64,000 nt of DNA from an uncultured virus (IMG/VR IMGVR_UViG_3300032305_002648) (Duplodnaviria > Heunggongvirae > Uroviricota > Caudoviricetes), in IMG/VR virus record IMGVR_UViG_3300032305_002648; one strand, given 5' to 3'. The notes beneath the pieces were generated by a model. It was not told the origin of the DNA. It saw only the letters and a list, made by a program, of their open reading frames with translations, and did not search any database. How positions within the stretch are numbered: the stretch's first letter is position 1; each line of letters opens with the position of its first letter. Below are positions 3,449-37,982 of this stretch, in pieces. Both the position numbers and the translations under genes were made by a program.

Positions 3449-3778
3449 ATGCCCACGCCAACACCCGAAGAAAACTTCAAGGAGCGAGATTGTTTTACCA
3501 TTGATGCATGCCCTGACCCCTATTCGCTGCGGGCGATGTACATGATCGCCGCACAACGCACCAAGGCCAACGTAATGAAACAACCGTTTGTCGCTGGGTT
3601 CGTTGGGTTTCACGGTGAAAAGTACGTTGCATTTAATGAATTTGCACCAGCTGCCGCGCTTGCTCACGTGGATGCAGAGTTGGATATGCAGAAACTTGAA
3701 GTGGTGGAAATGCGTAAGTTACTTCAATATGTAGAAGACCAGCAAAAGAAAACCGGTGATCACCGCAAAACATGTTAA
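3449..3778 (+). CDS. Hypothetical protein (alternative start 3374)
   Basis: Open frame; stop codon lies inside the promoter of the downstream endonuclease. Confidence 0.6.
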   Translation: MPTPTPEENFKERDCFTIDACPDPYSLRAMYMIAAQRTKANVMKQPFVAGFVGFHGEKYVAFNEFAPAAALAHVDAELDMQKLEVVEMRKLLQYVEDQQKKTGDHRKTC

Positions 3779-3837
3779 AATTGTAGGGCAGCGAAGTTAC
3801 TAGCTTCCTGCCCCCGGCAACCTCTCTTACAGGTCAC
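3773..3837 (+). promoter_or_regulatory. Extended -10 promoter plus structured leader of HNH-AP2 copy 1
   Basis: TGtTAAAAT then hairpin GGGCAG-C-GAAG/CTTC-CTGCCC; conserved at 13340..13405 and 37371..37433. Confidence 0.8.
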
Positions 3838-4380
3838 ATGACTAAGCTAGCATACAATCCGCTCCCTTCGCTGGAGCTGCTTCAAGAACTTTTTGTGATT
3901 TCTTCCGACTCCCCAAGTGGGTTGCGATGGAAATCCCCTAAGGCAAGAAATGTTAAGGGCAATTACGTTGCGGGATCAAAAAGAGCAGATGGGTATTGGT
4001 ACGTAGGAGTGACAACAAATAAACAAAAACGATATTTAGCGCATAGAATTGTTTATTTTTTACAAACAAAACAAGACCCCGGTTTATATCAAGTGGATCA
4101 TGTCAACGGAACAAGTGATCCATTAACGCTTCGGTTGGCCATATATGTAGAAAACCAGGCAAACAGTAAAAAACGGCCGTCAGTAAATGGCCAAAAGTGC
4201 AGCAGCATGTATAAAGGCGTTACCTGGGATAAACAGGCTAAAAAATGGCGGGCCGGCATTGGGTTTAAGGGTAAAAAACTTTACCTGGGTATTTTTACTA
4301 ATGAAAAGGAAGCTGCTGCCGCCTACAATAAAGCAGCTATTAAATTTTTTGGTGAATTTGCAAACTTAAACAAAATTTAA
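3838..4380 (+). CDS. HNH-AP2 homing endonuclease-like protein (copy 1)
   Basis: YLAHRIVY, VDHVNG, SSMYKGV.W...KKW.A.I...LYLG.F....AA.AYN.AA...FGEFA; AT-rich relative to flanks. Confidence 0.92.
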   Translation: MTKLAYNPLPSLELLQELFVISSDSPSGLRWKSPKARNVKGNYVAGSKRADGYWYVGVTTNKQKRYLAHRIVYFLQTKQDPGLYQVDHVNGTSDPLTLRLAIYVENQANSKKRPSVNGQKCSSMYKGVTWDKQAKKWRAGIGFKGKKLYLGIFTNEKEAAAAYNKAAIKFFGEFANLNKI

Positions 4381-4442
4381 TGCCTCCGGTTTATTTGCTG
4401 GCGAGGGTAAACCACATAGGATTGAGAAACACCACTGAACAA

Positions 4443-4766
4443 ATGACCACGAATACCCTTGGCTACAACATCTGGTACGCCCTTTCCTACGAGCTTACCA
4501 ATCTTCTCATTGATTATGACGCCAAGTGGGAACTCAATCCCTGGGTATTAAAGGTCCGCAACTACTGCAAACCTGACTGGGTTGAATGGAAGACGCAATC
4601 CACAATGAAAAGCGTCGACCTACAGGCAGAATCCATCAAGGCTGTATGGCAAAAGCAGGACCAAATCCAAAACAAACCTGTCATCATTGAACATCGCCCT
4701 GATCAATCAAAAGCTCAATCATTACTTGGCGGTGAGCTGGAAATCAAAGCGCCGTACCACAATTAA
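4443..4766 (+). CDS. Hypothetical protein
   Basis: ATG 4443 within ORF 4380..4766. Confidence 0.65.
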   Translation: MTTNTLGYNIWYALSYELTNLLIDYDAKWELNPWVLKVRNYCKPDWVEWKTQSTMKSVDLQAESIKAVWQKQDQIQNKPVIIEHRPDQSKAQSLLGGELEIKAPYHN

Positions 4767-4770
4767 ATCC

Positions 4771-5277
4771 ATGACCACCACTATTCTGGAACTTGGCGGC
4801 AACATTTCCCGCCTTCAAAAAGTTATTGAGTTGGCGGTAAAGTTCCCCGACTCCCCAATCGTCATCTCTTCTGAAGGGTCAGCGCAGGAAGTCATCAACA
4901 CCATGGATGCTGCCGGTATTCCACGCAATCGCTGGACACTGGACTACACCGCATGGGACACCGTAACCAATTTCACATGCACACTTCCACTTCTTCGCAA
5001 ACTCAACACCGATAAAGTCCTTGTTGTTACTGACGGCTTTCACATGAAACGTGTGATGCGCATTGCTACAGCCGTCTACTTCAACAATGGCATTACGCCA
5101 GTAGCTCAACCTAGCAGTCCCGTGGACCATGCAGAAGACCCTAAGCTTGTTCGTCTTGACACTGCCCGTGCGTGGTTGTGGCGTGCAACAAATCAATTAC
5201 TGGCAGATCAAAAGGTTTACGACGACCGCATGCCCTACTATCTAGAGCAATATCGTATCGCCAAAACTGTACTATAG
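4771..5277 (+). CDS. YdcF/DUF218 (ElyC/SanA-like) protein
   Basis: ELGG...R, IVISS, AWDTVTN and VLVVTDGFHMKR motifs. Confidence 0.85.
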   Translation: MTTTILELGGNISRLQKVIELAVKFPDSPIVISSEGSAQEVINTMDAAGIPRNRWTLDYTAWDTVTNFTCTLPLLRKLNTDKVLVVTDGFHMKRVMRIATAVYFNNGITPVAQPSSPVDHAEDPKLVRLDTARAWLWRATNQLLADQKVYDDRMPYYLEQYRIAKTVL

Positions 5278-5315
5278 TCCGGCGCCGGCAGGGCATGATC
5301 TGCTATTGTGTGAAC

Positions 5316-5645
5316 ATGAATTTGGTTACTGCCATGCGCCTACGCAGCAAAGAAGAAGAGCAAGAGCTTGCTATGGAAGCGGAATTGCGCAAGAGCTTTA
5401 GCGAAAAGCTTAATGACATCATCCATACAATGGAAGATCTGATGCGTGATGATCTCTTCATTGATGTCATCACCAGTACGCAGGAGGCCAACCTGGACTC
5501 GTTCCTAGAATTTGCCCACGGCCTGGCCCAGCAGGTGAAGCCCGATCCGATTGTTGCATTTGATGTCACCCGGACGTTCGAGTACCAGGATGCTCTAGAG
5601 TCTGATGAACAAGCCTGGGAGGAGCGGCAATCGGCCCGCGCTTAA
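5316..5645 (+). CDS. Hypothetical acidic protein
   Basis: ATG 5316 within ORF 5172..5645. Confidence 0.7.
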   Translation: MNLVTAMRLRSKEEEQELAMEAELRKSFSEKLNDIIHTMEDLMRDDLFIDVITSTQEANLDSFLEFAHGLAQQVKPDPIVAFDVTRTFEYQDALESDEQAWEERQSARA

Positions 5646-5677
5646 TCCCGGTCCTGTTGTCCTTTCTCGGAAAAAAC

Positions 5678-5881
5678 ATGAACTTCGACTACATCGGGTA
5701 CGCCATGGCCAAGGCACAACTGGAAGTCCTCCAGGGTGGTCCGGTCCAGCCCGTCCTTAATGTTGGTGACTTCATGGAGCAACCACATGCCCCAAGCATT
5801 TTGTACCCGCACCATCAACAGGCACCTGTAGTTCAGGCGCAATCCTTCCAGTTCCCTGGCCCCTACGTCAGGTACTTTTGA
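5678..5881 (+). CDS. Hypothetical Gln/Pro-rich protein
   Basis: ATG 5678; open frame. Confidence 0.55.
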   Translation: MNFDYIGYAMAKAQLEVLQGGPVQPVLNVGDFMEQPHAPSILYPHHQQAPVVQAQSFQFPGPYVRYF

Positions 5882-6087
5882 TCGGAGCAACTATCTGGAA
5901 ATCCCGGATAGTTGCCCTTGAGTCGCCCCAAGATTTAAGGGCAACATAACCAACAAGCCGGGGCCCATGCAGTAAGCTGTGTGAGCCCCGCACTCCAGTC
6001 ATGTTAAGGCTTTTCAGCGTTACCAACCTTTGCTCTTGTATGGATTTATGCCTCGCATAATGAAGTACCGGAGAGCAAATAACACCA

Positions 6088-6258
6088 ATGGAAAACGCCG
6101 AAATCCACGCCAAAAAACTTGCATGGGCCGTACTATCTAGGGCCGCCAATGGTCGCTCTGAAGTCATCAAAGTCACTGATAGTGATGACGCCGACCAAAC
6201 TGTACGTGAACATCCCGACCTCTTTTATAAAAGTGGTCCCTGCCTTCTTCCTTTCTAA
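6088..6258 (+). CDS. Small hypothetical protein (56 aa, not in ORF track)
   Basis: MENAEIHAKKLAW...GPCLLPF; abuts next gene. Confidence 0.6.
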   Translation: MENAEIHAKKLAWAVLSRAANGRSEVIKVTDSDDADQTVREHPDLFYKSGPCLLPF

Positions 6259-6267
6259 TTTGATCCA

Positions 6268-6477
6268 ATGAAGCTCCCGATCACCGGTTACGTCGTCATG
6301 ATGCACCACGATGAGGTAGGTACATTTGCACCTGCTTTTCGTAGCATGGATCAAGCCGAAGAGTTTTCTAATGCCATGCGGCTTGTTACGGAGATGGCAG
6401 TAGCCGAACCTGTGCCAATGGTGCTGGCTACATCTGTTCCTTCACCGCATGAAGTGATGGGTTACGTTGAGCATTAA
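6268..6477 (+). CDS. Hypothetical protein
   Basis: Open frame with ATG. Confidence 0.65.
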   Translation: MKLPITGYVVMMHHDEVGTFAPAFRSMDQAEEFSNAMRLVTEMAVAEPVPMVLATSVPSPHEVMGYVEH

Positions 6478-6620
6478 AAAATTATGATAACGACATTCTG
6501 GCTAATTGTTGCCATTGTAAGCTTTGCTTTTGTTTATTTGATTCCCACCAGGCTATAGACTACAATTCTCAACATTTGTTGAAGCCGCTCATTTGTAAAA
6601 AATGTGGCGGTTTTTTATTG

Positions 6621-7049
6621 TCAATCGTTTGATTGGAGGGCTTGTCCCGCCATACGGCTATCGCCAGTAAAGGGTTGTGGCCTAAATATAGTTGACGGCA
6701 GCTGTGATTTAGGGATTCCCTTTAATACATTGTATGTATCGTTTGCTCTAATATACTCACCAATATCAAAAGAACTCCCAAATGGTCCAGAGGGTAAGGG
6801 ATTGGAAAACGTTTTGGTTTGATCTGACTTAATTGTCGGCGTAGGTGATTTAGCTATTTCGTCGCTCCAATAGGGGACTGAGGGTGGCGGTGGGGCCATA
6901 ACCTTCTGCCTGTTAAGGGCATCTTCATCATTAGCCTTCTGCTTGTTAAGGGAATCTTCACGCAGCGCTTTTTCAATATTGGCTTGTGTTGGCGCAACAC
7001 CACCATTTTGATATGTGGTAAGTTGCCCCGAAGAATTTGTGGCTCCCAT
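6621..7049 (-). CDS. Low-complexity protein with RMAG motif, candidate virion-internal protein
   Basis: Starts MGATNSS; Pro/Ser/Gln-rich; TAGAAT box upstream. Confidence 0.75.
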   Translation of the reverse strand: MGATNSSGQLTTYQNGGVAPTQANIEKALREDSLNKQKANDEDALNRQKVMAPPPPSVPYWSDEIAKSPTPTIKSDQTKTFSNPLPSGPFGSSFDIGEYIRANDTYNVLKGIPKSQLPSTIFRPQPFTGDSRMAGQALQSND

Positions 7050-7131
7050 CAACTTAATCCCAACTCAAAACATTCTACAATCAGCGTACTCACCGGAGAT
7101 ATGCTATCCTCTTGGTAGATAATGCAACACC

Positions 7132-7260
7132 ATGGCCCTTGTTATTTCGTGTTCAATCCCAGATAATTTAGTGGAAAGTTGGAAGGCTTCCGGGTTGGGT
7201 ATTTCTCCATCCAAGCTGTTTCAGACTGCCTTGGCCTATGTAGTTGGCACCAAGCTGTAA
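7132..7260 (+). pseudogene. Truncated 42 aa paralogue of 7879..8130
   Basis: MALVISCSIPDNLVESWKASGLGISPSKLFQTAL matches the first 34 aa of the longer copy, then diverges and stops. Confidence 0.75.
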
Positions 7261-7274
7261 GCAAAAAACAAACA

Positions 7275-7321
7275 ACAAAAAACTGCACCGCCTAGTTTAT
7301 AGGTAGTGCAGTTTTTGTTTT
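7275..7321. terminator. Bidirectional intrinsic terminator
   Basis: aaaaactgcac...gtgcagttttt stem with A and T tails between convergent genes. Confidence 0.8.
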
Positions 7322-7796
7322 AATTGATTGACTTTTTTGATCGCCTACGTGCTTCATCTGTATAAGAACGCCACTGCGCTTGTGCTTGTGTTTCCGCCAA
7401 TTGCCCTAGTGTAGATTGTGCATCTCCCGCCATGCGCCCAGGTGCTGTTGATGAGGTAGACAATTGACTGCTGGGCTTACTCCAATAGGAACCAGATGTA
7501 GCGGGTGGAGCGGGGGCTGGTGTAGGTGTTGTTGATTTGGTTAAGTAGTACGGCGTAGGTGCAGGAGTTGGGGCAGCTACGGATGCGGGTACTGGTACAG
7601 GTGGCGGCGGGGGTGGTTGTGAACCGGTTAGCGATGTACCTGCTTTTGATTTTAGTTGTTTCTGTTGCGCTTGTTCTTCGGGATTAAGTTGTTTCCATCC
7701 TTCAAACTCTTTTCCGCGTTGATACACCCAACCATCTGGAGGATTTTGGCGTAAGTCCGACCCAGAACTGCTTGCACCTGAAGAGGATGCCCCCAT
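7320..7796 (-). CDS. Low-complexity Pro/Ser-rich protein with RMAG motif
   Basis: Starts MGASSS; PPPPPP and PTPAP tracts. Confidence 0.75.
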   Translation of the reverse strand: MGASSSGASSSGSDLRQNPPDGWVYQRGKEFEGWKQLNPEEQAQQKQLKSKAGTSLTGSQPPPPPPVPVPASVAAPTPAPTPYYLTKSTTPTPAPAPPATSGSYWSKPSSQLSTSSTAPGRMAGDAQSTLGQLAETQAQAQWRSYTDEARRRSKKSIN

Positions 7797-7878
7797 CAAC
7801 TTAATCCCAACTCAAGACATTCTACAATCAGCATACTCACCGGATATATGCTATCCTCTTGGTAGATAGTGCGACACC

Positions 7879-9404: not shown

Positions 9405-10028
9405 ATGACTGTTGAATTTGTTCACTGCACTCCCAATGCAGAAGCTTTGATCGTTAAAATGGCTCGCGTTTCCAATCCAGAAAACGAAAGCAACTTAGCG
9501 ACTGCACCAAAACTACTGAGGTATCTGATTGATCACCAGCACTGGTCACCGTTTGAAATGTGTAGTCTTTGTGTAAAGATTGACACTGAACGTGACATCT
9601 CTGCGCAGATATTGCGCCATCGTTCATTTAGTTTCCAAGAATTTAGTACCAGGTATGCCCAGGTACAGGAACTTACTATTCCAAAATTGCGTAAACAGGA
9701 TTTAAAGAATAGACAAAATAGTACAAATGATCTTGATTTAGGTACAGTGGATGTTTTAACCGAAGAAATTATGACGTTATACACGCAAGCTAGCGAACTT
9801 TATCAAGACATGCTTGACAATGGTGTAGCTAAAGAATGTGCACGTCGCATTCTTCCGCTCAGTACACAAACTACTTTATATATGCATGGCACTTTGCGGT
9901 CGTGGATACATTACATCAATGTGCGTACTGATCCAGGTACACAGCTAGAGCATCGATTAATTGCAGAAAACTGCAAACAAATCTTCATTGAACAATTCCC
10001 TACTATTGGTGAGGCTGCATTCAAATGA
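9405..10028 (+). CDS. thyX: FAD-dependent thymidylate synthase
   Basis: HWSPFE, QILRHRSFSFQEFSTRY (RHRx7S motif), ECARRILP, Q.EHR. Confidence 0.98.
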   Translation: MTVEFVHCTPNAEALIVKMARVSNPENESNLATAPKLLRYLIDHQHWSPFEMCSLCVKIDTERDISAQILRHRSFSFQEFSTRYAQVQELTIPKLRKQDLKNRQNSTNDLDLGTVDVLTEEIMTLYTQASELYQDMLDNGVAKECARRILPLSTQTTLYMHGTLRSWIHYINVRTDPGTQLEHRLIAENCKQIFIEQFPTIGEAAFK

Positions 10029-10336
10029 CTAATCAACAACACCCAATCACACCACCGCCTGGGTTGGTGGAACAGTGGCATTCCAACTCACCTCTTGATC
10101 GAGGTTTAACTCTTGCCACAAAAGCCGCCCAATGGGGTGCCGACCAGGAGCTGGAGGCGTGTTGCCAGGTGATTAAAACCAAGTACGGCGGTGGCAGCAG
10201 GCTCCGCGCCGCCCGCCGCCCCAAGCCGCCGAGCTTGAAGAAGCAGGCGCTGGCTGCGTTGGAGCGCCGCAAGTACATCATGGACGAGAAAGATCTTGAC
10301 ATTCTTTGCCGCGCCGTGGGGGCATTGCCCGAATGA
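10025..10336 (+). CDS. Hypothetical modular phage protein, paralogue of 2..394
   Basis: HPITPPP.LV.QW, AAQWGADQELEACC, AARRPKPPSLKKQALA. Confidence 0.85.
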   Translation: MTNQQHPITPPPGLVEQWHSNSPLDRGLTLATKAAQWGADQELEACCQVIKTKYGGGSRLRAARRPKPPSLKKQALAALERRKYIMDEKDLDILCRAVGALPE

Positions 10337-12328: not shown

Positions 12329-12791
12329 TCGGTGTTACGTCAAATAGTTCCCGGATGGTGTCATCTGAATAGGGTGGCCGGTACCAGAAGAACTTCTTCT
12401 CATGGAAATCAATGACCCATTCGGGGTGATGTCGATGCCACCGAGACCAAGTCTTAAATTGTTGTTCTGGTTTTGCACTGGTGCAATCCAAAAACAAAAC
12501 ATCGCCGCCCTCAATGTTCCATCGAATCCTTAAGACTTCATTAAACCCCGCAATGATAGTTTTGATCCCTTGATTCCCCAGTAGTTTTTTATCCAATTTT
12601 CTCCTGCGTTTGTTCTTGCGCTTATGGTACCAATCTCTTTGCTCGCGTGGTGAGCCACCGACGACGAAACCCACACCCCAAACCCAGTGGCCTAGAGTGT
12701 ACTCGTGTAGCGGTTCAAGAAAAATACGACAGCGCTGGTCACCAACTATAAAAGTGCTGGTTTTGAATTTGCGTTTTGGGCGGTAAGTCAC
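12192..12791 (-). CDS. Hypothetical basic protein
   Basis: 199 aa ORF; GTG overlaps HNH stop (GTGA). Confidence 0.7.
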   Translation of the reverse strand: MTYRPKRKFKTSTFIVGDQRCRIFLEPLHEYTLGHWVWGVGFVVGGSPREQRDWYHKRKNKRRRKLDKKLLGNQGIKTIIAGFNEVLRIRWNIEGGDVLFLDCTSAKPEQQFKTWSRWHRHHPEWVIDFHEKKFFWYRPPYSDDTIRELFDVTPIIPADPLANTAGSRYYDCFCVRPKGNSKELSNDQITNLLSMVLAN

Positions 12792-13339
12792 GTACTTTTT
12801 TCAAGTGTGTTCAGCTTAGCAAACTCCCCAAAAAATTTGATAGCGGCTTCGTTGTAAGCTTTTGCTGCATCTATTTCATTGGTGAAATAACCAAGATAAA
12901 ACGCTTTACCTTGAAAACTTATATCGGCCTTCCATTTGCAATCTTTTTTATTCCATGAAACCCCTTTGTATGTACTGCTGCATTTTTTCCCTGCATATTT
13001 TTTGTTCTTTTCCCTATTCCCACCATTTTCGGATGTAGTCGCCAAACGCAAAATAATGTTATTTGACCGGCACACCACATGATCCACTTTGGAATGCCCT
13101 GGATCTTGTTTTGTTTGCAAAAAATACACAATTCTGTGAGTGTTGTACACCCGTGGTTTATCTGTTTTAACGCCTACTCTCCAGTATCCATTGTGATTTT
13201 TTCTTCCTGCTATGTCCCCGGCTTTAACATTTCTGGCTCTAGGAGACTGCCATCGCAGGCCACTTGGGGAATCAGCGCAGATTTCAAAAAGTTCTTGGAG
13301 CAGCCCCAGAGGGGGCAGGGGTTTTGCTAGATTTGACAT
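12788..13339 (-). CDS. HNH-AP2 homing endonuclease-like protein (copy 2)
   Basis: Paralogue of 3838..4380; start at ATG 13339 by alignment. Confidence 0.92.
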   Translation of the reverse strand: MSNLAKPLPPLGLLQELFEICADSPSGLRWQSPRARNVKAGDIAGRKNHNGYWRVGVKTDKPRVYNTHRIVYFLQTKQDPGHSKVDHVVCRSNNIILRLATTSENGGNREKNKKYAGKKCSSTYKGVSWNKKDCKWKADISFQGKAFYLGYFTNEIDAAKAYNEAAIKFFGEFAKLNTLEKST

Positions 13340-13405
13340 GTGACCTGTAATCGAGGTTGCCGGGGGCGGGAGGGTGCGAACCTCGCCGTCCCACAAATTT
13401 TAACA
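13340..13405 (-). promoter_or_regulatory. Extended -10 promoter plus structured leader of HNH-AP2 copy 2
   Basis: TGtTAAAAT...GGGACGGCGAGG-TTCGCAC-CCTCCCGCCC...ACAGGTCAC-ATG on - strand. Confidence 0.8.
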
Positions 13406-13467
13406 TAGTTTGTCCTGCCGTTCAGGGTTTTTGGGTTTAAAGTGGCTGCAACAACCGTCGTAAAACG

Positions 13468-13752
13468 ATGAATGATTTAATTGAAATGATTCAGCGGGAT
13501 GCTGAGCTATATGAAATAGTGGAGCAGCTGAAACATCAAGATGACAGCTTGGAAGATTTTCTGCTGAATGTGGCAAATATGCTCAGTATCGAATTCCAAG
13601 AGCTGCATCGAACGGATTTGGCGGACAAACTATCGGCTCTGTTTGGTGGACTTCCCCCCAAAGCTTTTGCTATGGTGCCCACGCTTGTTCATATTGCCTT
13701 GGACATCTTTCTGCTCAAGGCAATTCCCGATCACAAAAGTATCAGGAATTGA
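13468..13752 (+). CDS. Hypothetical protein
   Basis: First gene of polymerase cluster. Confidence 0.75.
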   Translation: MNDLIEMIQRDAELYEIVEQLKHQDDSLEDFLLNVANMLSIEFQELHRTDLADKLSALFGGLPPKAFAMVPTLVHIALDIFLLKAIPDHKSIRN

Positions 13753-15904: not shown

Positions 15905-16075
15905 ATGGACGCAACAAACGAAAACTGCATCCGCGCCTCACTCCATACCTTGGACAATGAGGAATTGCAAGAGATGAGCGACCAACTGACTAAGTTCATC
16001 AATGTTTTAATTGGTCGCCAGGTGATCATTGAAGAAGTCATCCTTGAAAGGCTTGAGGCCTCCTTTGCTAAATGA
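15905..16075 (+). CDS. Small hypothetical protein (56 aa, not in ORF track)
   Basis: MDATNENCIR...EASFAK; ATGA coupling to deaminase. Confidence 0.7.
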   Translation: MDATNENCIRASLHTLDNEELQEMSDQLTKFINVLIGRQVIIEEVILERLEASFAK

Positions 16076-16521
16076 ACTTTGAGGAGGAGAAGTGGCACAT
16101 TCGCTTTTTGCGAATAGCGAATGAAATTGCTACCTGGAGTAGGGACCCTAGTACCAAGGTTGGTTGTGTCCTTGTCAAAGACAAGAAGATAATCAGCACC
16201 GGGTATAACGGATTTCCAAAAAACATCAGCGATGATTTAAATCGCTTGAATAACCGTGACTTCAAGTATGAAGCAACCATTCATGCCGAGACTAATGCCA
16301 TCATCACTGCAGCACTCCACGGTATTTCCACGGAGGGTGCTGCTGCTTATACAACTTTTCATCCTTGCAGTCGGTGTGCTGCTGCTTTGATCAATGCTGG
16401 GGTGGCCGAGGTCTTCGTCAGCGCCAGGGGGGCAATCCCTGAGAGGTGGCTGGAGAACTTCCTATTGGCTGCTAAGCTCTTCGAGGAGGCAAGCGTTGGC
16501 CTCCACACGATCGACCATTAA
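16072..16521 (+). CDS. dCMP deaminase (ComEB-like)
   Basis: SRDPSTKVG, GYNG, HAE, PC..C motifs. Confidence 0.97.
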   Translation: MNFEEEKWHIRFLRIANEIATWSRDPSTKVGCVLVKDKKIISTGYNGFPKNISDDLNRLNNRDFKYEATIHAETNAIITAALHGISTEGAAAYTTFHPCSRCAAALINAGVAEVFVSARGAIPERWLENFLLAAKLFEEASVGLHTIDH

Positions 16522-21540: not shown

Positions 21541-22326
21541 TTACTTGTTTTTAGGTTTTGTGGCGGAATCTTTCAATGCCTTATCGGTCGGGGCACCTTT
21601 GCTCCCCGGTTTGCGCATGGTTTCGCCACTGCCTTTCTCAATGCGCTCGCGCTTGGCGTGGATGTTGTCCCAGAGTCCGGGATCGCCTGGTTTTTTCTGT
21701 GGCACGGTGGTCGCCTCGTATAAGAAGTGATTGGACGTTTCTATCATACGCGAATTCTCCACGCTGTACTCAGTAAGATCAATCTCATATCCAGGATTTT
21801 TTTCAATTCTGTCCTTAAGCCATGCATCATCATACCAAATGATTCGATTGTTGGGGTACGCATAAAAATTACCATCATCCATTCGGAAGAAATGCGCACA
21901 CTTGTGCTCAGGTGTCTCACTGAAATTAGTATTGAGAGTTGATTTGGATTCCCAGGACCAATCCATGGTGAACATATAGATGCCGCCCTTCTTTTCACCT
22001 TTAAAATTGATTAGTTGTGCACGTAAATTTGAAAGTCGTGCTCTAACTTGTACATCAATATAGGGAGAAAAGCAATCCCACCACATGCATTCATTTAGCT
22101 CGGGCTTTGGTGCGTCTGGTTTCCAACAAAGGGAATGGATGGGGCGTCTTGTCCAATTAACACCATTTTCTAAGAAGACTTCAAACAATGGTACGTGTTT
22201 CTCCAGTGAAGCAACGGAGTGTACGTCACATAACGTTACATCCCCGTGCCCCTTTTTGTGGTTGTACAGGAATTCATTTCGGATATAGCAAGTAAACGTT
22301 GGAAGGTTGTGATTTAAATAACTCAT
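21541..22326 (-). CDS. Conserved hypothetical protein with basic C-terminal extension
   Basis: YLNHNLP...RNEFLY, WDCFS, PEHKCAH, YAYPNNRIIW; tail GLWDNIHAKR.RI..GSGE.MRKPG.KGAPT. Confidence 0.85.
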   Translation of the reverse strand: MSYLNHNLPTFTCYIRNEFLYNHKKGHGDVTLCDVHSVASLEKHVPLFEVFLENGVNWTRRPIHSLCWKPDAPKPELNECMWWDCFSPYIDVQVRARLSNLRAQLINFKGEKKGGIYMFTMDWSWESKSTLNTNFSETPEHKCAHFFRMDDGNFYAYPNNRIIWYDDAWLKDRIEKNPGYEIDLTEYSVENSRMIETSNHFLYEATTVPQKKPGDPGLWDNIHAKRERIEKGSGETMRKPGSKGAPTDKALKDSATKPKNK

Positions 22327-25746: not shown

Positions 25747-26078
25747 TGGCTATACAAGATCCAAGTCAACCAAATCATGCTGAGAGTTTGGTTTGGCTTC
25801 TCAGTAGCCTCTCCGACAATGGGAAATCACTTCGCTCATTCCTGAGCAACCCGCAGGAACTTGGTGTCTGCATCTTGACGGCTGGTCTGCTTGCCAACAG
25901 TAAACTTAGTATCGCTCCAGATGACGCTATCAAGGTGGCTCTAGAAACCTACGCAAAAGTTCAAGTTCACGTTGGTCAATACCACCAGGCAAAGTTCGCT
26001 GCCAATTTGGAAGGTGTATTTCAATCTGAACTGCCTACTAGGTACGAAGATCGGCCCGGTGAAGTTGAGGGCGATTAA
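25746..26078 (+). CDS. Hypothetical protein
   Basis: TAATG coupling. Confidence 0.7.
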   Translation: MAIQDPSQPNHAESLVWLLSSLSDNGKSLRSFLSNPQELGVCILTAGLLANSKLSIAPDDAIKVALETYAKVQVHVGQYHQAKFAANLEGVFQSELPTRYEDRPGEVEGD

Positions 26079-26461
26079 CCAAAGTACGTCCGTTTAATCA
26101 TTTTTCCGTAGCTTGAAGTGGCCTCAAATAAATTTTTAAGCACAGAAAAAGCTTTTTTAGGATCCGTATGACTGCCACAAGTAAAGGCATCGATATTCCC
26201 GTACTGCAATTCTGGCCAGGTATGGATGCTTATATGACTCTCCGCTAGCAATGCAAATGCTGTAACGCCTTGTGGTTGAAACTTGTGTGAACCAATCTTT
26301 AGTAGCGTGGCACCAGATTGCATTGCAGCTTCTCGCAAGGCACTACAAATAAAGTCTTCATCATTTAGCAGGTCAGAATTGGCGCCGTAAATCTCACCAA
26401 TATAGTGCTTACCTTTCGCACCCGACGCCTGCTCCATTTTCTTTTTGCATAGTTTATTCAT
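26075..26461 (-). CDS. speD: S-adenosylmethionine decarboxylase proenzyme (pyruvoyl-dependent)
   Basis: G.H, HKFQPQGVT, LLAESHISIHTWPE, D.FTCG. Confidence 0.95.
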   Translation of the reverse strand: MNKLCKKKMEQASGAKGKHYIGEIYGANSDLLNDEDFICSALREAAMQSGATLLKIGSHKFQPQGVTAFALLAESHISIHTWPELQYGNIDAFTCGSHTDPKKAFSVLKNLFEATSSYGKMIKRTYFG

Positions 26462-26538: not shown

Positions 26539-27456
26539 ATGACCCCTGCTGTCCTGGATATAACCGCAAAAATCCTGGAGCGGGTAACCGAAAAGGCCAA
26601 GATTCACCCCTCGTACCATGCCGATGCATCGTATGAGCAATTCTTGGACTATCGCAGCGACGGAAGTACAAGGGTCGAGATTAATGGCTCACGTCACTAT
26701 CGTACAGTCTGGGGGAATTTGCCCTCAGTAACTACGATTCTCAGTGCTACCAGTGGGAATAAAGCTGCCCTTGAACGTTGGGCAACGAAAAATCCCGGTG
26801 GCCGAGAAGCTGCAGCTGCCAGGGGTACACTCGTTCACTCATACATGGAGCGCTACCTTCTCGGTGAACGTGATTTCCCTGTCGAAGAAGCCGTAGAACC
26901 GTTTTGGAGGGGGCTACCAGAGAAACTGGACAATTTTGAACGTGTCATTTGGGCTGAAAACCCAGTCGGGGACAACTTTAAGTGGACAATTGGTGGTGAT
27001 GGCATTAGCAGGGTATGGCATCCTGGGGTTGTGGAAGGTAAGTTACACGGCTTTGCAGGTGCACCAGACATCGTTGCCGAATGGAAAGGGAAAACGGTGC
27101 TCGGAGATTTGAAAACCAGTAACGGCCTTTATTTTGGTAAATGGCCCGGCAGCGATACCCCTAAAAATGAGTATGGCATGCGGCGAGCAGGATTTATGAA
27201 GTACAGCAAGTGTTGCATGCAGATGGCAGCCTATGCTATGGCGCTAGAGCACACGTGCGGCATCAAACCCGATATCCTTATGATCTTAGTCGCTACTGTA
27301 GAACGCCCGCAAGTTTTTGCAATTCAAGGAGCTACCATTGAAAAATGGAAAGCCAAGTGGTTAGAGGCCGTAGAAAAATACTACACTGAGTATCTACCCT
27401 CAATCAATGCCCCTAAAATTGAAATGGAAGTTATCGATGGAGACAAAGTGGGATGA
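26539..27456 (+). CDS. PD-(D/E)xK exonuclease
   Basis: PSVTTIL, RGT.VH..ME, AG.PD, DLKTS, Q.AAY. Confidence 0.92.
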   Translation: MTPAVLDITAKILERVTEKAKIHPSYHADASYEQFLDYRSDGSTRVEINGSRHYRTVWGNLPSVTTILSATSGNKAALERWATKNPGGREAAAARGTLVHSYMERYLLGERDFPVEEAVEPFWRGLPEKLDNFERVIWAENPVGDNFKWTIGGDGISRVWHPGVVEGKLHGFAGAPDIVAEWKGKTVLGDLKTSNGLYFGKWPGSDTPKNEYGMRRAGFMKYSKCCMQMAAYAMALEHTCGIKPDILMILVATVERPQVFAIQGATIEKWKAKWLEAVEKYYTEYLPSINAPKIEMEVIDGDKVG

Positions 27457-28373
27457 AAGAAAAAAAATATAACTATGTTTACGCTGTTGTCAACTTTGAG
27501 CAACGATTGGCTTATATTGGCTCTAGGGGGGCTAATGTCTCGCCATCGGTAGACAACTACATGGGCAGCTTTAAAAAAGGCATTGAGTTTACCCCTAATA
27601 AAAAAATTATTCTTAGTGAACATTTAACACGTAAGGAAGCTTATGAAGCTGAAAGGGAATGGCAACTCAAGTATGATGTAGCAAAAAGTTCTTTATTTGT
27701 AAATAGAGGTATCCTTACGTCTTCAGGTTTTAGTAATGCAGGAAAAGTGGGGGGCATTAGCAGCATGCGAGGTAAAACCCATACTGTTGAAGCAAAAAAA
27801 CAAATTAGAGAAAAAATGCGGCATCGTTTTAAAAGCATCAATATTAAAAAGATTGATACAGGTGAAGTATTTAAATTCGATTCAATTGGACAAGCTTCAC
27901 GTGAATTAGGTGTGTCAAATGCTCAGTTAAGTTTTTTGTTGAGCGGCGCATACAAAAGAACCCATAACTATTGCCTTGAAAGCACTGATGTAAGCATTTT
28001 TAAAACAAAATTTATTTTAAAAAATGCAAGTACGGGTGAACTGGTTGAAGCAACTTCACGGGAAGAAATGGTACGTAAAATTGGGTCCAATTCTGGAGAG
28101 GTTTCTAGGGTTTTAAATGGCGTGCGTCTTTCAACCCATGGGTATTGCTTACCGGATACTGACATCAAGTTGCTTGGCATCAAAAATCGTGCTATAAAAC
28201 TTTTTAATACTTCTACTGGTCAAATAGAAGAGTTCAAAGGTGTTGTTCTTGCCGCTAAAAAAATTGGAGTAAGTTCCTCTTTGGTGTCAATGGTTTTAAG
28301 TGGTAAACGCCTTCGGGCAAAAGAGTACGTTTTGCCTCCCAAGCTGGCTGCAGCACAAGATTCTGCAGCGTAA
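27453..28373 (+). CDS. GIY-YIG homing endonuclease with NUMOD3 and repeated NUMOD1-type DNA-binding modules
   Basis: YVY-10-YIG, Y.GS, EA...E, N; GKTHT.EAK..I; three TGE...F.S...A...G repeats; AT-rich. Confidence 0.88.
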   Translation: MKEKKYNYVYAVVNFEQRLAYIGSRGANVSPSVDNYMGSFKKGIEFTPNKKIILSEHLTRKEAYEAEREWQLKYDVAKSSLFVNRGILTSSGFSNAGKVGGISSMRGKTHTVEAKKQIREKMRHRFKSINIKKIDTGEVFKFDSIGQASRELGVSNAQLSFLLSGAYKRTHNYCLESTDVSIFKTKFILKNASTGELVEATSREEMVRKIGSNSGEVSRVLNGVRLSTHGYCLPDTDIKLLGIKNRAIKLFNTSTGQIEEFKGVVLAAKKIGVSSSLVSMVLSGKRLRAKEYVLPPKLAAAQDSAA

Positions 28374-32281: not shown

Positions 32282-32295
32282 TTTAGAGGCGTTGA

Positions 32296-33866: not shown

Positions 33867-34334
33867 TTAGGCCGGAGGCAGTAAAGAATTGCGTAGTTGT
33901 TTAATTCTTCTTTCAAGTTCCCCAGGTTTAAGCCTTGGGTAAGGTTTGGAGGCCGGATTTGCATTGAAATCTTGAATCCATTTATCGACGATTGGTGAAT
34001 CTATGTCGGGAATCAGGTCAAAGGAGGGAAGGGAGGCTTGCAGGTTACCGGGCGGTTGCTGCTGCTGTTTGTTCAGAAAATTATTAAGAAAATCTTTGGG
34101 TGGTTGTGTGATGGGGAGTGACAGTTTATCGATTAAGTCCCGAGAGAAGGGTTGGCCGGGGCTGCCACCCACGCCGGGAGCTGGTGCGTTGGCAACATAA
34201 CCACCAAGGTATGGGGGTACATCTGTACTAGAACCACCTGCGTAGCCGCCTTGAACACCGAAGGAGGGGATATCGGTCCCAGATTGGCCGAAGTAGTTAT
34301 CTCCAGAAAATTGTTCGGCGTAATAGGAGGCCAT
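33867..34334 (-). CDS. Low-complexity hypothetical protein
   Basis: Gly/Pro/Gln-rich; DFLNNFL motif. Confidence 0.7.
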   Translation of the reverse strand: MASYYAEQFSGDNYFGQSGTDIPSFGVQGGYAGGSSTDVPPYLGGYVANAPAPGVGGSPGQPFSRDLIDKLSLPITQPPKDFLNNFLNKQQQQPPGNLQASLPSFDLIPDIDSPIVDKWIQDFNANPASKPYPRLKPGELERRIKQLRNSLLPPA

Positions 34335-34377
34335 GTTACGTGCGCAGGTTAAGAAATGGTTAAATTATTTGAAATTG

Positions 34378-35340
34378 TTATTCGGGGCCGCCAAAGTAAA
34401 CGGCGTAATCATTGCGGTTGTTAACCATATTTTTCTGCATGGCGGCATAATCACGGCCAGGGAAGTTGTAGCTGCCCCAATTTAAACCGGTTAGCTTCAT
34501 GTTTTGCAGAAAATCCCCAGCACGCTGCAATGCGGTAGATGATTCTGTTCCCACCCCGGCTTGTTCTGCTGTTTTGAACTGTTGCTCTTGGGCCTCCGCT
34601 GCAGGGTTGAAGCTCGTGTCAAAACCGGAGACCGGGCTAGGACCGCCTGATGGTGCATAATACTGCCCACTTGCCATCGCAGCCCTGATTGCATCGTTGC
34701 TGGGACCGGCGGTAGGTGCGCCGCCACCGACACCCTTCCACAGTTCTTCCATTGACGGTACGTCACCACGTGCCTGCATCAGTGGGTTGAACGTACCAAC
34801 GGCGCCACCGGGTTGAGCCATTTTGCTTCCGGCGTAGAAGTCTTTCCAGATGTCCATGCCTTGGTCACGGGCTTCTTGAGCGGCACCGGGGATGGGGCCT
34901 TTAGACGGATCGTAGCCTTGGAGGGCTTGACGGGCAAGGGTTGCTTGGTTGTTGTAGGCGTTGAGGCGTTGGCGATATTCGTCGGGGATACCGTCTTGAC
35001 CTTGGACAATAGTGTTCGGGCTGACACCAGCGGGTCCGGCACCTGCAACGGGAGCTTGGCCACGGGTCGGTGCAGCCGGAGCTTGCCCCCGGATTGTGGG
35101 AATATAAGCGCCTGCATTGCCCCCACCCAGCCCCGTAGGCACACCTTCGGGATACTGCATGATCTGCCTTGCACTGGCGGGAAGATTACCAAAGTTTGGT
35201 CCACTACCTGCACGAGCCCTATAAAGAGCCCCTGTAGTGGGGTGATAGTCACTGACACCCTTTGGATTCGCTGGGGGCCCAAAAAAACGTGTAAATCCTC
35301 GTCCAAGCATATTTTCAAGTGTATAAGGATTGCCGGCCAC
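34378..35340 (-). CDS. Low-complexity Gly/Ala/Pro-rich protein, candidate virion-internal protein
   Basis: 320 aa ORF; RGQAP tandem repeat; GDFLQN motif. Confidence 0.75.
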   Translation of the reverse strand: MAGNPYTLENMLGRGFTRFFGPPANPKGVSDYHPTTGALYRARAGSGPNFGNLPASARQIMQYPEGVPTGLGGGNAGAYIPTIRGQAPAAPTRGQAPVAGAGPAGVSPNTIVQGQDGIPDEYRQRLNAYNNQATLARQALQGYDPSKGPIPGAAQEARDQGMDIWKDFYAGSKMAQPGGAVGTFNPLMQARGDVPSMEELWKGVGGGAPTAGPSNDAIRAAMASGQYYAPSGGPSPVSGFDTSFNPAAEAQEQQFKTAEQAGVGTESSTALQRAGDFLQNMKLTGLNWGSYNFPGRDYAAMQKNMVNNRNDYAVYFGGPE

Positions 35341-35380
35341 GATTTTAACTTTACCTTTTCCTATAATTGTATCACCGGCA

Positions 35381-35614
35381 ATGATTACAACCGCTGTGGA
35401 ACTGATCTCTACTTTGAAAAACGGGACAACGATAGAACAATACGTAGATGGTGGTGGGCATTTGACCTACCGGATCTGCACGCCAAGTCAAGCGATCTGC
35501 CGGTTGACGGACGTACACCATTGCGCAACCTCGTATGCGGAGACGTTTGACCAGATGGCACTGAAACCCGGAACAGCCAAAACCGAGGGCAAAAGCGGGG
35601 TAGAAGAGGGCTGA
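35381..35614 (+). CDS. Hypothetical protein
   Basis: ATG 35381. Confidence 0.55.
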   Translation: MITTAVELISTLKNGTTIEQYVDGGGHLTYRICTPSQAICRLTDVHHCATSYAETFDQMALKPGTAKTEGKSGVEEG

Positions 35615-35784
35615 AAGGGGCAATTGACACACAAATAACTCCCCTAACTCCCCTGAAAAACGGTCAAAATCGTTAGGGGTGCAGGGGTCTTGCATGGGCT
35701 AGGGCAGCAAAACGCTGTCAGGGGCGAGGTTTTGAAGTTACTGATAGTGAGTTGATGGTTTGGGGTCATTTTGTTTCCCCGTGT

Positions 35785-35886
35785 AGCGGTTAGGGGTGGA
35801 ACACTGTGTGTCATATTTGTGTGTCAGTTGGGGGCCGGAAAAATTTACACACAAATGTTACACACACTGTTCCACCCCTAGCTGCT
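35785..35886. repeat. 40 bp imperfect inverted repeat in non-coding region
   Basis: Arms 35785..35824 and 35847..35886, 35/40 identical, 22 nt spacer. Confidence 0.92.
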
Positions 35887-36000
35887 TCTATAAGAAATAA
35901 AAGGAAGGGTATCCAGAAATTTAATATCAGTAAATTCAAACCCGTTGACACAACTTGCTTTTTGCCCTACGCTACCCATATCCCATACCAACCCCTAGCG

Positions 36001-36537
36001 ATGCGTTTAGTTGGTGATACCTACGCAACCGATTTTTGGTCGGTTTTTCTTCTCTCCGGTCTCACCAGGAAAGACGCTCTCTACGTTGCCGAAGCCATGG
36101 CCCACTTCCAAACGGTGGCGGCCCCCGGTCAGTGCTGGTGCGTCAAATCCCGTAAGCACTTAGTCCTCAAGGGTTTTGAGGGCGGCGGTAATCGTTTGGT
36201 TCCCTACTACAAGGGCAAGAATGCTCGCTTCCTTGTCCTTGCGCTAATCAACCAATTCGCCACCGCAGAGGCACCTGTAGCCGTCCGCAAGGCCGCCTGT
36301 AAGTCCCAGTGGTGCATCAACCCTGAGCACTATTACTTCGGCACCAGGAGTGATGTGAAGCTCGAAGACAACAAAAGGAAGGGCGGTAACCTAAGCCCAG
36401 AGTTGATAGCGGAGATTCGGCAGCTGAAAGCCGAGGACCCACGGAAATGGACAGCTGCTGCTCTTGCTCGGCACTACAACATGCGCTACCATGTGGTTCG
36501 CAGGATTTGCTTGGGGGAGACCTTCGGTGGAAATTGA
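36001..36537 (+). CDS. Degenerate HNH (Zn-loop type) protein with C-terminal HTH
   Basis: C....CINPEH...GT...; usual catalytic His not evident; LARHY.M....VRRI..GET. Confidence 0.7.
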   Translation: MRLVGDTYATDFWSVFLLSGLTRKDALYVAEAMAHFQTVAAPGQCWCVKSRKHLVLKGFEGGGNRLVPYYKGKNARFLVLALINQFATAEAPVAVRKAACKSQWCINPEHYYFGTRSDVKLEDNKRKGGNLSPELIAEIRQLKAEDPRKWTAAALARHYNMRYHVVRRICLGETFGGN

Positions 36538-37117
36538 AAATTCAAGCGTTTTGCAACAAAACTTAACCAAAATTCGTGGGAAATTTAGGGAGGAGCTAGG
36601 CAAGCATCAGCAACTACAGCTGGATTCCGTAAAGACGACCTGCCCTTGGCACAAAGAAGGTAGCGTAGGTCACATTGGTAACTTTGGACGGATGCATGAA
36701 TGTCTGGATTGCGTTGAGGAAATCAAGGTCGGGAGATGTGAACTAAATGTTAAGAACTTTAAGCTGAAAGATTACTGGATTATCAAAGCTTTTTGGGAAA
36801 AAGTTGATATTAAAGGACCAAATGATTGCTGGCTTTGGAAGGGCGCCACGCGAAAAAATGAAACAGAAACCATCGCATATTTTCCCTCTCCATTTCACAG
36901 TACAAAAAGTCAATCAGCTGCTAGGGTGGCTTTTTGGGTTACGCGGGGCTACACGGGTAAGCTACGGATTGCCCACCAAGAAGGCTGTCCTGCGCTATGC
37001 TGTAACCCGTCGCATCTGAAGGTGTTTGGGATTAAACCTGAACCCCCCAACACAAAAATCACTACAATAGATCTAAGTTATGGCAACATCTTTCAAACCC
37101 ACAGCAAAACGCTCTGA
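36527..37117 (+). CDS. HNH endonuclease (Zn-loop type)
   Basis: FWEKV...GPNDCWLWKG, A.RVAF, H...C....CNPSHL; start GTG 36527. Confidence 0.85.
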   Translation: MEIENSSVLQQNLTKIRGKFREELGKHQQLQLDSVKTTCPWHKEGSVGHIGNFGRMHECLDCVEEIKVGRCELNVKNFKLKDYWIIKAFWEKVDIKGPNDCWLWKGATRKNETETIAYFPSPFHSTKSQSAARVAFWVTRGYTGKLRIAHQEGCPALCCNPSHLKVFGIKPEPPNTKITTIDLSYGNIFQTHSKTL

Positions 37118-37139
37118 AACACTGGCTACGGCATATCAC

Positions 37140-37373
37140 GTGCCCAATCCACGTTATTTTGCGTGGGTGTCCATCGGTGCGGAAGTAATCTATTCGGAAC
37201 CGTATAACACCAGGGAAGAAGCGGATAACGAACGCCGCTGCATTGAAAAGCGCCTTAGCTACGAATTGATTGAAACAATGGAAGGCGAAGGCTGCTATCC
37301 CGAGCGTGCTAAACTTATGGAAGAGCGCTATCAAGCCAGCGGTCGAACCAACGGGCTGTATTCAAACTTGTGA
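37140..37373 (+). CDS. Small protein with AP2-like pattern
   Basis: YFAWVSIG......Y.TREEA...R...EK.L. Confidence 0.5.
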   Translation: MPNPRYFAWVSIGAEVIYSEPYNTREEADNERRCIEKRLSYELIETMEGEGCYPERAKLMEERYQASGRTNGLYSNL

Positions 37374-37433
37374 TAAAATTGTGGGACAGCGGAGTTCGCG
37401 CTCCCTGCCCCTGGCAACCTCACAACAGGTCAC
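37371..37433 (+). promoter_or_regulatory. Extended -10 promoter plus structured leader of HNH-AP2 copy 3
   Basis: TGaTAAAAT...GGGACAGCGGAG-TTCGCG-CTCCCTGCCC...ACAGGTCAC-ATG. Confidence 0.8.
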
Positions 37434-37982
37434 ATGACTAAATTAGCATACAAGCCGCTCCCTCCGCTGGAGCTGCTTCAAGAACTTTTTGTAATTTCTA
37501 TTGACTCGCCAAGTGGTCTGCGGTGGAAGTCCCCTAGAGCAAATCGCATCAAGGTTAACGACGTTGTAGGAACAAAAAAATTAGGTGGATACTGGCATGT
37601 AAGTATAAAAACAGATAAACCAAGGATATACAGAACGCATAGAATTGTGTACTTTTTGCAAACAAAACAAGACCCAGGTTTATATCAAGTAGATCACGTC
37701 AACGGAACAGGTGACCCATTGGAACTTCGGTTGGCTACACCTGGAGAAAACCTAGCAAACAGTAAAAAAACACAATGTTACGGCGGCAAAAAGTGCAGCA
37801 GCATTTATAAGGGGGTTGGTTGGAATAAAAAAGATTTCAAATGGCATGCAAAAATAATGTTTCAAGGCAAAAAAATTTTTCTTGGTTGCTTTGTTAACGA
37901 GATAGAAGCCGCAAAAGCCTATAACAAAGCTGCCTTAGAATACTTTGGTGAGTTCGCTAGAATTAATCAACTAGAAGAATAA
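37434..37982 (+). CDS. HNH-AP2 homing endonuclease-like protein (copy 3)
   Basis: Close paralogue of 3838..4380. Confidence 0.92.
   Translation: MTKLAYKPLPPLELLQELFVISIDSPSGLRWKSPRANRIKVNDVVGTKKLGGYWHVSIKTDKPRIYRTHRIVYFLQTKQDPGLYQVDHVNGTGDPLELRLATPGENLANSKKTQCYGGKKCSSIYKGVGWNKKDFKWHAKIMFQGKKIFLGCFVNEIEAAKAYNKAALEYFGEFARINQLEE

Follow-up and report, generated by a model that had tools for sequence, protein, structure and literature searches.

Introduction

Selfish nuclease genes are common in phages and, to our knowledge, little is known outside the T-even phages about how the nucleases are kept harmless to their carrier. Among insertion sequences, the transposase of IS10 is under the antisense control of RNA-OUT. 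For IS200, the available part of the description places the art200 RNA opposite the 5′ untranslated region (UTR) of tnpA, with promoters that face each other and an mRNA hairpin over the ribosome site that also acts (PMC4513863). SymR of E. coli is a small RNA opposite the 5′ UTR of the toxic symE gene, and in the portion of the source at hand its promoter is embedded within the open reading frame (ORF) of symE, so that its -10 box can be removed by silent codon changes (PMC1891008). Here we analyze a structured element that precedes three genes for HNH-AP2 endonucleases in a 64,000-nucleotide stretch of DNA from an uncultured virus of the Caudoviricetes (IMG/VR record IMGVR_UViG_3300032305_002648), which we refer to as the window.

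For the phage genes I-TevI, I-TevII, I-TevIII, segB and Aeh1 mobE, the accessible text describes leader hairpins that sequester the ribosome-binding site, together with nested late promoters (PMC2988022). The antisense RNA CfrI of cyanophage S-PM2 lies opposite a homing endonuclease gene (PMC2984593). In the part of that paper at hand, CfrI has a length of about 225 nt, extends over psbA as well as the endonuclease gene and is known from a single phage, and it is not described there as a compact covarying family of two hairpins at a 5′ UTR, which sets it apart from the element studied here. According to its catalogue entry, the unnamed 51-nt candidate DNAVirus_7989 comes from 100 freshwater viral sequences with 3 covarying bases, and in 59 of the 100 it is followed within 25 bp by an Endonuclease_7 gene (PMC10690425).

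In our analysis, the fold of the element probably belongs to the strand antisense to the nuclease ORF. We consider the chances about even that convergent promoters give rise to a cis-antisense RNA of approximately 60-65 nt that throttles the nuclease. In its working, SymR/symE would be the closest relative, since, as far as its available account goes, its RNA lies opposite a 5′ UTR and has a promoter embedded in the ORF, as is proposed for the RNA predicted here. There is however no relation in sequence or in Rfam, the target here is a mobile phage nuclease and the RNA is a predicted one, and the -10-like box lies in codons 3-4, where it would constrain the N-termini of three nuclease groups. 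Likewise, art200 and RNA-OUT are, in the descriptions at hand, cases of a mobile element that limits its own enzyme through an antisense RNA opposite the 5′ UTR, whereas our case concerns a homing endonuclease cassette in phages of a lytic type, with a different fold and a strand-specific helix with tandem G.U pairs, and is computational only.

Results

Covariation and strand of the fold

The structure and its strand, the covariation, the two conserved -10-like boxes with their fixed spacing and the link to mobile nucleases were all computed here. The initial annotation had described a covarying RNA leader with compensatory changes in the inner stem (GAAG/CTTC, GAGG/CCTC and GGAG/CTCC) and in the outer stem (CAG/CTG versus CGG/CCG). 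These changes are present as described, and in a set of 66 distinct sequences, which are related to one another, 97.9% of the 924 pair-by-sequence cells are paired on the sense strand, that is, the strand of the nuclease mRNA, with changes on both sides in 9 of the 14 pairs. For the long hairpin alone, 97.3% of the cells pair, and two-sided changes are seen in 8 of the 10 pairs. The observed level of pairing and covariation was reached in none of 500 shuffles, controls in which the pairing was slid along the alignment paired in 30-51% of the cells, and an alignment of 28 sequences made independently of the model gave the same picture of covariation.

The bulged C, already noted as invariant among the copies in the window, is invariant throughout the 66 sequences. 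The loop motif TTCGC is present solely in the two window loops for which it was reported and is not conserved, the loops of the relatives being highly varied, and a resemblance to a T-loop is not borne out: the loops differ widely among the 66 distinct copies and ARAGORN finds no tRNA in the window. A second stem, ACCT/AGGT, had been proposed to cover the ribosome site. Its pairing is kept as ACCA/TGGT in relatives, but the support amounts to about one evolutionary event, with a fourth pair of the ACCN stem that is A-U in 59 sequences, U-A in 6 and unpaired in 1. The apparent bulged A of the second and third window copies is better described as an A.C mismatch on the sense strand, i.e., as a G.U pair in a 7-bp stem on the antisense strand.

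When mutual information was scanned over every pair of columns, no covariation appeared between the loops of the two hairpins and no other long-range covariation either; the stem pairs ranked at the top. As a side observation, the first and last bases of the P1 loop (columns 34 and 40 of alignment A4) are C with A in 46 sequences and T with G in 15. Pairs of C.A and U.G are isosteric wobble pairs; the two columns are almost never Watson-Crick, and the pattern may be plain relatedness. A pairing of the -10 box with the first codons was also considered and dropped, as it fits just one codon variant.

The exceptions to pairing bear on the strand that folds. On the sense strand, 905 of the 924 cells are Watson-Crick and none is G.U; the remaining cells are 11 A.C, 7 G.A and 1 A.A. 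The G.A and A.A cells and three of the A.C cells are due to the alignment register, which leaves A.C as the sole kind of true exception. On the antisense strand, a fold of 17 pairs is complete in all 1156 of 1156 cells of a MAFFT alignment of 68 distinct sequences that was not fitted to the structure, and nine of the pairs change on both sides. The exceptions to Watson-Crick pairing are here all G.U (4, 3, 2, 1 and 1 cells in the long hairpin P1′ and 1 in the second helix P2′) and come from at least seven separate lineages, as judged by reading the alignment rows. There are 147 G.U cells in the antisense fold, and the same 17 pairs are thereby formed in only 1009 of 1156 cells (87%) on the sense strand.

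Folding energies point in the same direction. RNAalifold recovers the same two helices unaided from the antisense alignment at -25.7 kcal/mol, as compared to -10.9 kcal/mol and 11 pairs for the sense alignment, a difference that comes in part from the placement of gaps in the sense alignment. For the three window copies, the energies are -24.3, -28.9 and -27.3 kcal/mol when the antisense strand is folded (z-scores of -2.8, -2.5 and -2.95, with 2 of 200 shuffles as good) and -20.2, -19.7 and -16.5 kcal/mol for the sense strand (z-scores of -1.55, -1.0 and -0.9). P2′, a 7-bp helix formed on the antisense strand only, has as its arms the invariant blocks GGCAACC and GGTCAC. The gain in folding on that strand arises because this helix contains two tandem G.U pairs, which are A.C on the mRNA. 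The antisense fold with its two hairpins, as computed, spans positions -1 to about -52 of the sense strand and so lies opposite the start region of the gene, the location that is typical of cis-antisense regulators such as SymR, art200 and RNA-OUT. The idea of a hairpin in the mRNA leader is thus not upheld, since the true exceptions read A.C on the sense strand but G.U on the other, to which the 7-bp helix is confined as well, and we conclude that the initial annotation was probably wrong about the strand.

Two conserved -10-like boxes face each other

A hexamer of the form T-A-n-n-n-T stands upstream of the hairpin on the sense strand, with T, A and T at positions 1, 2 and 6 in 63, 69 and 67 of 71 distinct relatives, and is preceded by TG in 52-53 of the 71. 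The conserved box ends 4 nt before the hairpin, which places the predicted start of the mRNA at the hairpin foot.

On the opposite strand, a TAnnnT box is encoded by codons 3-4 of the nuclease gene. It is found in 66 of 68 hexamers, and the other two belong to nuclease genes in decay. Behind the hexamer come six bases and then a G in 68 of 68 sequences, which is the first base of P2′, and there are no insertions or deletions over the 22 columns of this region. Within the ORFs, the sense positions are A at +7 in 67 of 69 sequences, T at +11 in 67 of 69 and A at +12 in 69 of 69. Codon 4 is NTA in 67 of 67 ORFs (CTA 33, TTA 31, ATA 2 and GTA 1), as compared to 382 TTA and CTA codons among the 893 Leu codons (43%) elsewhere in the same ORFs, and codon 3 begins with A in all, whether I, S, K, N or T is encoded. 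In two loci (L285 and L280) the start codon is shifted 6 nt downstream and the antisense box is retained. An extension TGn of the antisense box, in codon 5, is present in the window copies and in all other HNH-AP2 members.

On the far side of the fold, the nine bases after P1′ on the antisense strand contain a mean of 5.7 T, and the P1′ hairpin is rich in G+C.

Organization of the three copies in the window

The three copies proposed in the initial annotation, at 3773-3840 (+), 13337-13405 (-) and 37371-37436 (+), were all recovered, each ending at the ATG of a nuclease of 180-183 aa. Similarity between the copies starts abruptly at the TGnTAAAAT box, and in all three cases the stop codon of the upstream ORF falls within that box; the neighboring genes are co-oriented at all three copies. 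The window has two exact matches to the 3′ half of the motif, for an expectation of 0.00. Two covariance models run without filters match the window only at the three copies, with 68-84 bits, and the next-best match in the 64 kb has 13-14 bits (E 0.4-1.5).

In the first copy, the sense extended -10-like sequence TGTTAAAAT is located at 3773..3781 (+) and includes the TAA stop (3776-3778) of the ORF at 3374-3778; read on the other strand, this box is the U-rich tail behind P1′. The long hairpin P1/P1′ at 3786..3813 (-) consists of 6 outer pairs, one bulged base, 4 inner pairs and a 7-nt loop. It is followed by P2′ at 3817..3837 (-), with 7 bp on the antisense strand, two tandem G.U among them, and only 4 bp (ACCT/AGGT) on the sense strand, over the likely ribosome site. 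The antisense extended -10-like sequence TGCTAGCTT at 3844..3852 (-) comes from codons 3-5 of the nuclease ORF (3838..4380, +, 180 aa), and the predicted antisense start is position 3837.

The second copy is in the opposite orientation. Its sense box, again TGTTAAAAT, is at 13397..13405 (-) and includes the TAA stop (13402-13400) of the ORF at 13400-13576. P1′ is at 13363..13392 on the + strand, which is antisense to the nuclease here, and has an outer stem of 7 pairs, one of them G.U; P2′ is at 13340..13360 (+), also with 7 bp on the + strand. The antisense extended -10-like sequence TGCTAGATT at 13325..13333 (+) lies within codons 3-5 of the nuclease ORF at 12788..13339 (-), which encodes 183 aa from the ATG at 13339. 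Two terminator-like calls near this copy, at 13412-13428 (+) and 13308-13296 (-), are outside the element and were set aside.

The third copy, with a spacer that is one base shorter than in the other two, starts with TGATAAAAT at 37371..37379 (+), which includes the TGA stop (37371-37373) of the ORF at 37080-37373. It has P1′ at 37383..37411 (-), P2′ at 37414..37433 (-), with 7 bp and a 6-nt loop, and the antisense extended -10-like sequence TGCTAATTT at 37440..37448 (-), within codons 3-5 of the nuclease ORF at 37434..37982 (+, 182 aa). This is the nuclease with an orthologous copy in the nearest related virus record, G001.

Nuclease partners and mobility of the cassette

The ORFs downstream of the element fall into three groups at a loose threshold. 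The largest comprises 62 proteins that resemble endonuclease VII and have a zinc-ribbon-like N-terminus (phrog_1035 and phrog_26577, with no Pfam match), while the others are 12 HNH-AP2 proteins and 4 proteins with the Pfam domain Endonuclease_7. The upstream flanks represent at least 15 different contexts. A profile search with the three HNH-AP2 proteins gave 80 loci, with the element only at L122 (in G001) and at L123/L124; L125, where the nuclease is 46% identical, and the weaker profile matches are without it. Among homologous nucleases outside the lineage of carriers, the element was absent at 12 of 12 loci. Furthermore, the gene that precedes the first window copy has a 70%-identical counterpart in one relative (L381), which lacks both nuclease and element. 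The gene downstream in L381 is a different one, and the right-hand boundary of the cassette is therefore undefined. The proposal that the element is part of a mobile nuclease cassette is thus supported by the variety of flanks and by the absence of the element at the 12 loci outside the lineage and in the nuclease-less relative. Among contigs from public sequencing runs that were compared with 2500-5500, a single one (X3, depth 5.8) joins position 3694 to 4467 with 85 other letters between, a joint that is consistent with a nuclease-less allele.

In addition, in contigs from two public runs (X3 and X4), position 4757 is connected to 5299 through 10 other letters. Close relatives thus differ in the presence of a 541-nt stretch (window 4758-5298) that overlaps the ORF at 4687-5277.

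Comparisons between loci with the same flanks indicate where the conserved unit ends. L340/L277 and L314 share the site and an identical element and have two different nuclease bodies, with similarity that ends at +12. For L360 and L350/L311, similarity ends at +15; site, element and C-terminal nuclease domain are shared and the N-terminal domain differs (residues 6-86 versus 6-128), which by the alignments is a case of domain shuffling behind the element. Because the similarity between different bodies ends at +12 or +15, the conserved unit, judged from these alignments, is a segment of about 85 bp that runs from the TGnTAAAAT box to codon 4 of the nuclease.

Some nuclease genes are decayed, either through the loss of the N-terminal domain (L334, L265) or through truncation (L262, L336). 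In loci of the first type (L334, L265 and L344, and also L242 and L251), a 3-codon ORF comes after the element, and behind it the HNH C-terminal domain with a new start; 121 nt take the place of the N-terminal domain, and the antisense -10-like box is gone too. A further decayed copy (L380 1501-1586, record G007) follows a clean terminator and has a -10-like box and a P1-like hairpin but not the second helix. It precedes an ORF that is not a nuclease and looks like the footprint of a nuclease loss.

Relatives and distribution

The element has 66-68 distinct relatives in viral and metagenome contigs. The search patterns prescribed both short blocks and some of the 3′ arm, with no constraint on the 5′ arm, the inner stem or the loops. 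In viral contigs, the pattern for the 3′ half gave 73 loci, reduced to 37 (the three of the window included) by deduplication and a filter for an upstream hairpin, and of these we judged 28 to be true and 9 to be chance matches. A pattern anchored in the hairpin, with the last block free, gave 20 loci, 18 of them true: 16 have the usual last block and two, which are identical, have a variant one. One metagenome scan yielded 65 loci, 58 with the element and 7 without, and the same pattern applied to 185,579 bacterial and archaeal species genomes gave 8 matches, all by chance and in unrelated sequence. All 85 loci given to the covariance model match it with 52-95 bits, which together with the three of the window makes 88 matches, 66 of them distinct. 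In two other searches, a first loose DNA pattern hit at least 119 stretches, of which, among those examined, only the copy in G001 bore the element, and a locus search with a single nuclease of the window found only the orthologue in G001.

The related phage records that are available as a whole have one or two copies of the element each, and the complete genomes of carriers are 76-88 kb in size. Since the related records have the major head protein (68-71% identical to that of the window in 4 of 5 records) and the DNA polymerase (40-44% identical in 3 of 5) in common, the carriers are, by these comparisons, a single phage lineage.

A search of the whole window against Rfam (version 15) gave no match at the gathering score, and in 3700-3900, where both strands were searched, no match appeared even at E-values as high as 10; the families covered include HEARO, RNA-OUT, SymR and phage antisense RNAs. 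The literature was searched for a description of the element and none was found. DNAVirus_7989 may overlap with it, so that part of the element may already have been catalogued in 2023: one of the nuclease groups served here has the Endonuclease_7 domain, although the comparison is one with the catalogue entry, and this entry has no name, strand analysis or mechanism (PMC10690425).

Other genes in the window

Phage genes in the window include those for a family A DNA polymerase, a primase, the major head protein and tail fibers, as annotated with PHROGs. The closest match to a cultured phage is one of 42% identity, for the DNA polymerase, and a blastn search of 3300-4800 against public phage records gave no match. 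The three HNH-AP2 proteins (180-183 aa) are 61-67% identical to one another. All match phrog_99 'HNH endonuclease' (E 1e-45 to 3e-43), and their C-terminal matches to AP2 have 32.6, 29.3 and 17.9 bits (E 1e-7 to 4e-3), slightly below the Pfam cut-off of 33.3 bits in all three cases. Four other ORFs for HNH or homing endonucleases, at 27453-28373 (+), 36464-37117 (+), 46265-46705 (-) and 58378-59274 (+), with PHROGs E-values of 1e-10 to 1e-54, are without the element, which brings the number of nuclease genes in the window to seven. No phage RNA polymerase, integrase or transposase was annotated among the 112 ORFs of the window.

Paralogous ORFs of phrog_32006, a family of unknown function, are located 10 kb apart (35-394 and 10025-10336), and there are three endolysin-like ORFs (2298-2942, 42037-42816 and 47032-47823). 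PHROGs also identifies a thymidylate synthase (9405-10028), a dCMP deaminase (16072-16521), an S-adenosylmethionine decarboxylase (26075-26461), a ferredoxin-like protein (21541-22326), a 2OG-Fe(II) oxygenase (43744-44541) and a fragment of a Phd-like antitoxin (38698-38892).

Discussion

The initial annotation saw in the element a cis-regulatory motif, and a cis-regulatory role is the one that we rate as most likely, although on the opposite strand. We propose a model in which the control module of about 85 bp in each cassette consists of two promoters that face each other. From the sense extended -10 box (TGnTAAAAT), transcription of the nuclease mRNA would begin at the foot of the long hairpin, and the antisense -10-like box TAnnnT would give rise to a small RNA whose first base is the one immediately preceding the ATG. 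This RNA would fold from its first base, forming first the 7-bp P2′ with its two tandem G.U pairs and then the bulged P1′ of 10-11 bp, and would end in a U-rich tail that overlaps the sense -10 box. Being fully complementary to the 5′ UTR of the nuclease mRNA, weak ribosome site included, it could block translation, trigger decay or occlude the sense promoter, and a toxic selfish nuclease might thereby be kept at a low level. The tandem G.U pairs would make the second helix strong on the antisense RNA alone and leave the ribosome site of the mRNA just weakly closed, while the strict Watson-Crick covariation in the long hairpin fits a system in which both RNAs fold. In proposing this model we infer that either promoter fires and that the antisense RNA exists, ends at the tail and represses the nuclease.

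One extension of the model, which we hold more tentatively and put somewhat below an even chance, is a silencer that travels with the cassette. A strand-specific antisense RNA would be made from a promoter within the first four codons of the nuclease, and its loops would provide control specific to each copy. Under this interpretation, the promoter would force unrelated nucleases to share a start of the form M-x-(I/K/S/T/N)-(L/I/V). The hairpin loops differ even among the three copies of one genome, and in the antisense systems of plasmids it is the loop sequences that determine specificity.

Several observations weigh against an antisense RNA. The strand asymmetry in P1 is based on 11 cells. 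The three outer pairs of P2′ never vary, and since the search patterns required those blocks, this invariance is subject to ascertainment; the pairing there is based on energy and on one consistent change (G.U to A-U, in L285). The TGn extension of the antisense box is found in 24 of 68 sequences only. A scan for sigma-70 promoters and terminators makes no call at the element for any of the window's three copies, although the scan used the sigma-70 consensus, from which the promoter rules of the host may differ, and modeled neither extended -10 boxes nor bulged stems. Likewise, the tail is not a classic U-tract: it is interrupted by A, with UUAAAUUUU in most relatives, the U run of the window copies begins 5 nt beyond the stem, and the conserved A positions suit the sense -10 signature better than a terminator.

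We also considered the possibility, which we regard as unlikely, that the element is a leader of the sense strand only. An mRNA started from TGnTAAAAT would be stabilized by its 5′ hairpin and the ACCN/N′GGT hairpin would damp ribosome binding, with the other strand inert. Such a leader would make sense of the strong conservation of the sense -10 signature, of the spacing that puts the start at the hairpin foot and of the 4-bp stem over the AGGT/TGGT site, which keeps its pairing through one two-sided change. Its precedent is the leader-hairpin control of homing endonuclease genes in T-even phages, where the accessible text likewise has a structured element and a promoter right upstream of the gene, presumably limiting synthesis (PMC2988022). 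However, a leader of this kind does not account for the lack of G.U in 924 sense cells, where all true exceptions are A.C, nor for the GGCAACC and GGTCAC blocks, the fixed A at +7 and the fixed TA at +11 and +12, and the sense fold is no better than those of shuffles (z-scores of -0.9 to -1.6). Five lineages without a good sense -10 box keep the rest of the element (L262, L210/L326, L301, L304 and L345). Assignment to the T-even type, as far as it is described in the available text, was rejected: 24-25 nt separate the end of the stable P1 from the ATG, and the AGGT/TGGT ribosome site is outside this hairpin, the -10-like box precedes the hairpin here whereas the promoter is nested in the hairpin there, and the fold there is that of an mRNA whereas the complete pairing here occurs on the opposite strand only.

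A structure in the DNA itself is improbable in our view. In this scenario, the template strand of the nuclease gene would extrude two single-stranded hairpins as a recognition site for a protein, for example where a phage RNA polymerase uses a hairpin as its promoter, or where priming or recombination takes place. The nearly pure Watson-Crick covariation, the conserved bulged base and the exchange of nuclease bodies at a fixed junction beside the element are all compatible with such a site, and as G.T is the least disruptive mismatch in DNA, the asymmetry between the strands would agree with single-stranded DNA of the template strand as well. Tandem G.U pairs are stable in RNA, whereas the two tandem G.T found in 67 of 68 sequences would weaken a 7-bp helix of DNA. 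Moreover, the window ORFs include neither the polymerase nor the recombinases that such sites would call for, the junction of the exchanges is merely the end of shared homology, and the two -10-like boxes would be unexplained.

It is hardly probable that the module has no role in nuclease dosage and instead insulates its surroundings, with a tail hairpin that stops stray antisense transcription, or that it serves as a homology anchor. In one large flank group, a divergent ORF seems to start about 24 nt beyond the tail, although the classification of the 250-nt flanks is ambiguous, and exchanges at the edge of the module are what an anchor for the swapping of bodies between co-infecting phages might leave behind; against this stand the co-oriented neighbors of all window copies and the fact that an anchor needs no covarying structure, strand-specific G.U or fixed -10-like boxes. 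An RNA cofactor or guide bound by the nuclease, the other role suggested in the initial annotation, is extremely improbable. Its sole support is the tight physical linkage to nuclease genes, whereas one element is shared by nucleases of three groups that are unrelated or distantly related and differ in their N-terminal domains; the proteins are small (150-246 aa) and of the His-Me finger type, and the element has no match in Rfam, HEARO included.

If a cis-antisense RNA is indeed made from the element, the strand is of consequence for surveys of RNA motifs, as a motif placed on the same strand as the gene behind it may be a motif of the opposite one. The signal seen here, a helix that forms on one strand only owing to tandem G.U pairs, is a rare clean example. 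A small natural riboregulator of this kind would also be a part for engineering. For the phages, the findings point to a portable control module of about 85 bp that is common to three nuclease groups across a lineage, in which the promoter of a regulatory RNA appears to fix the first four codons of the nuclease and thereby to shape the N-termini of the proteins. Such a system would represent a phage counterpart to the type I toxin-antitoxin systems and to the antisense control of transposases.

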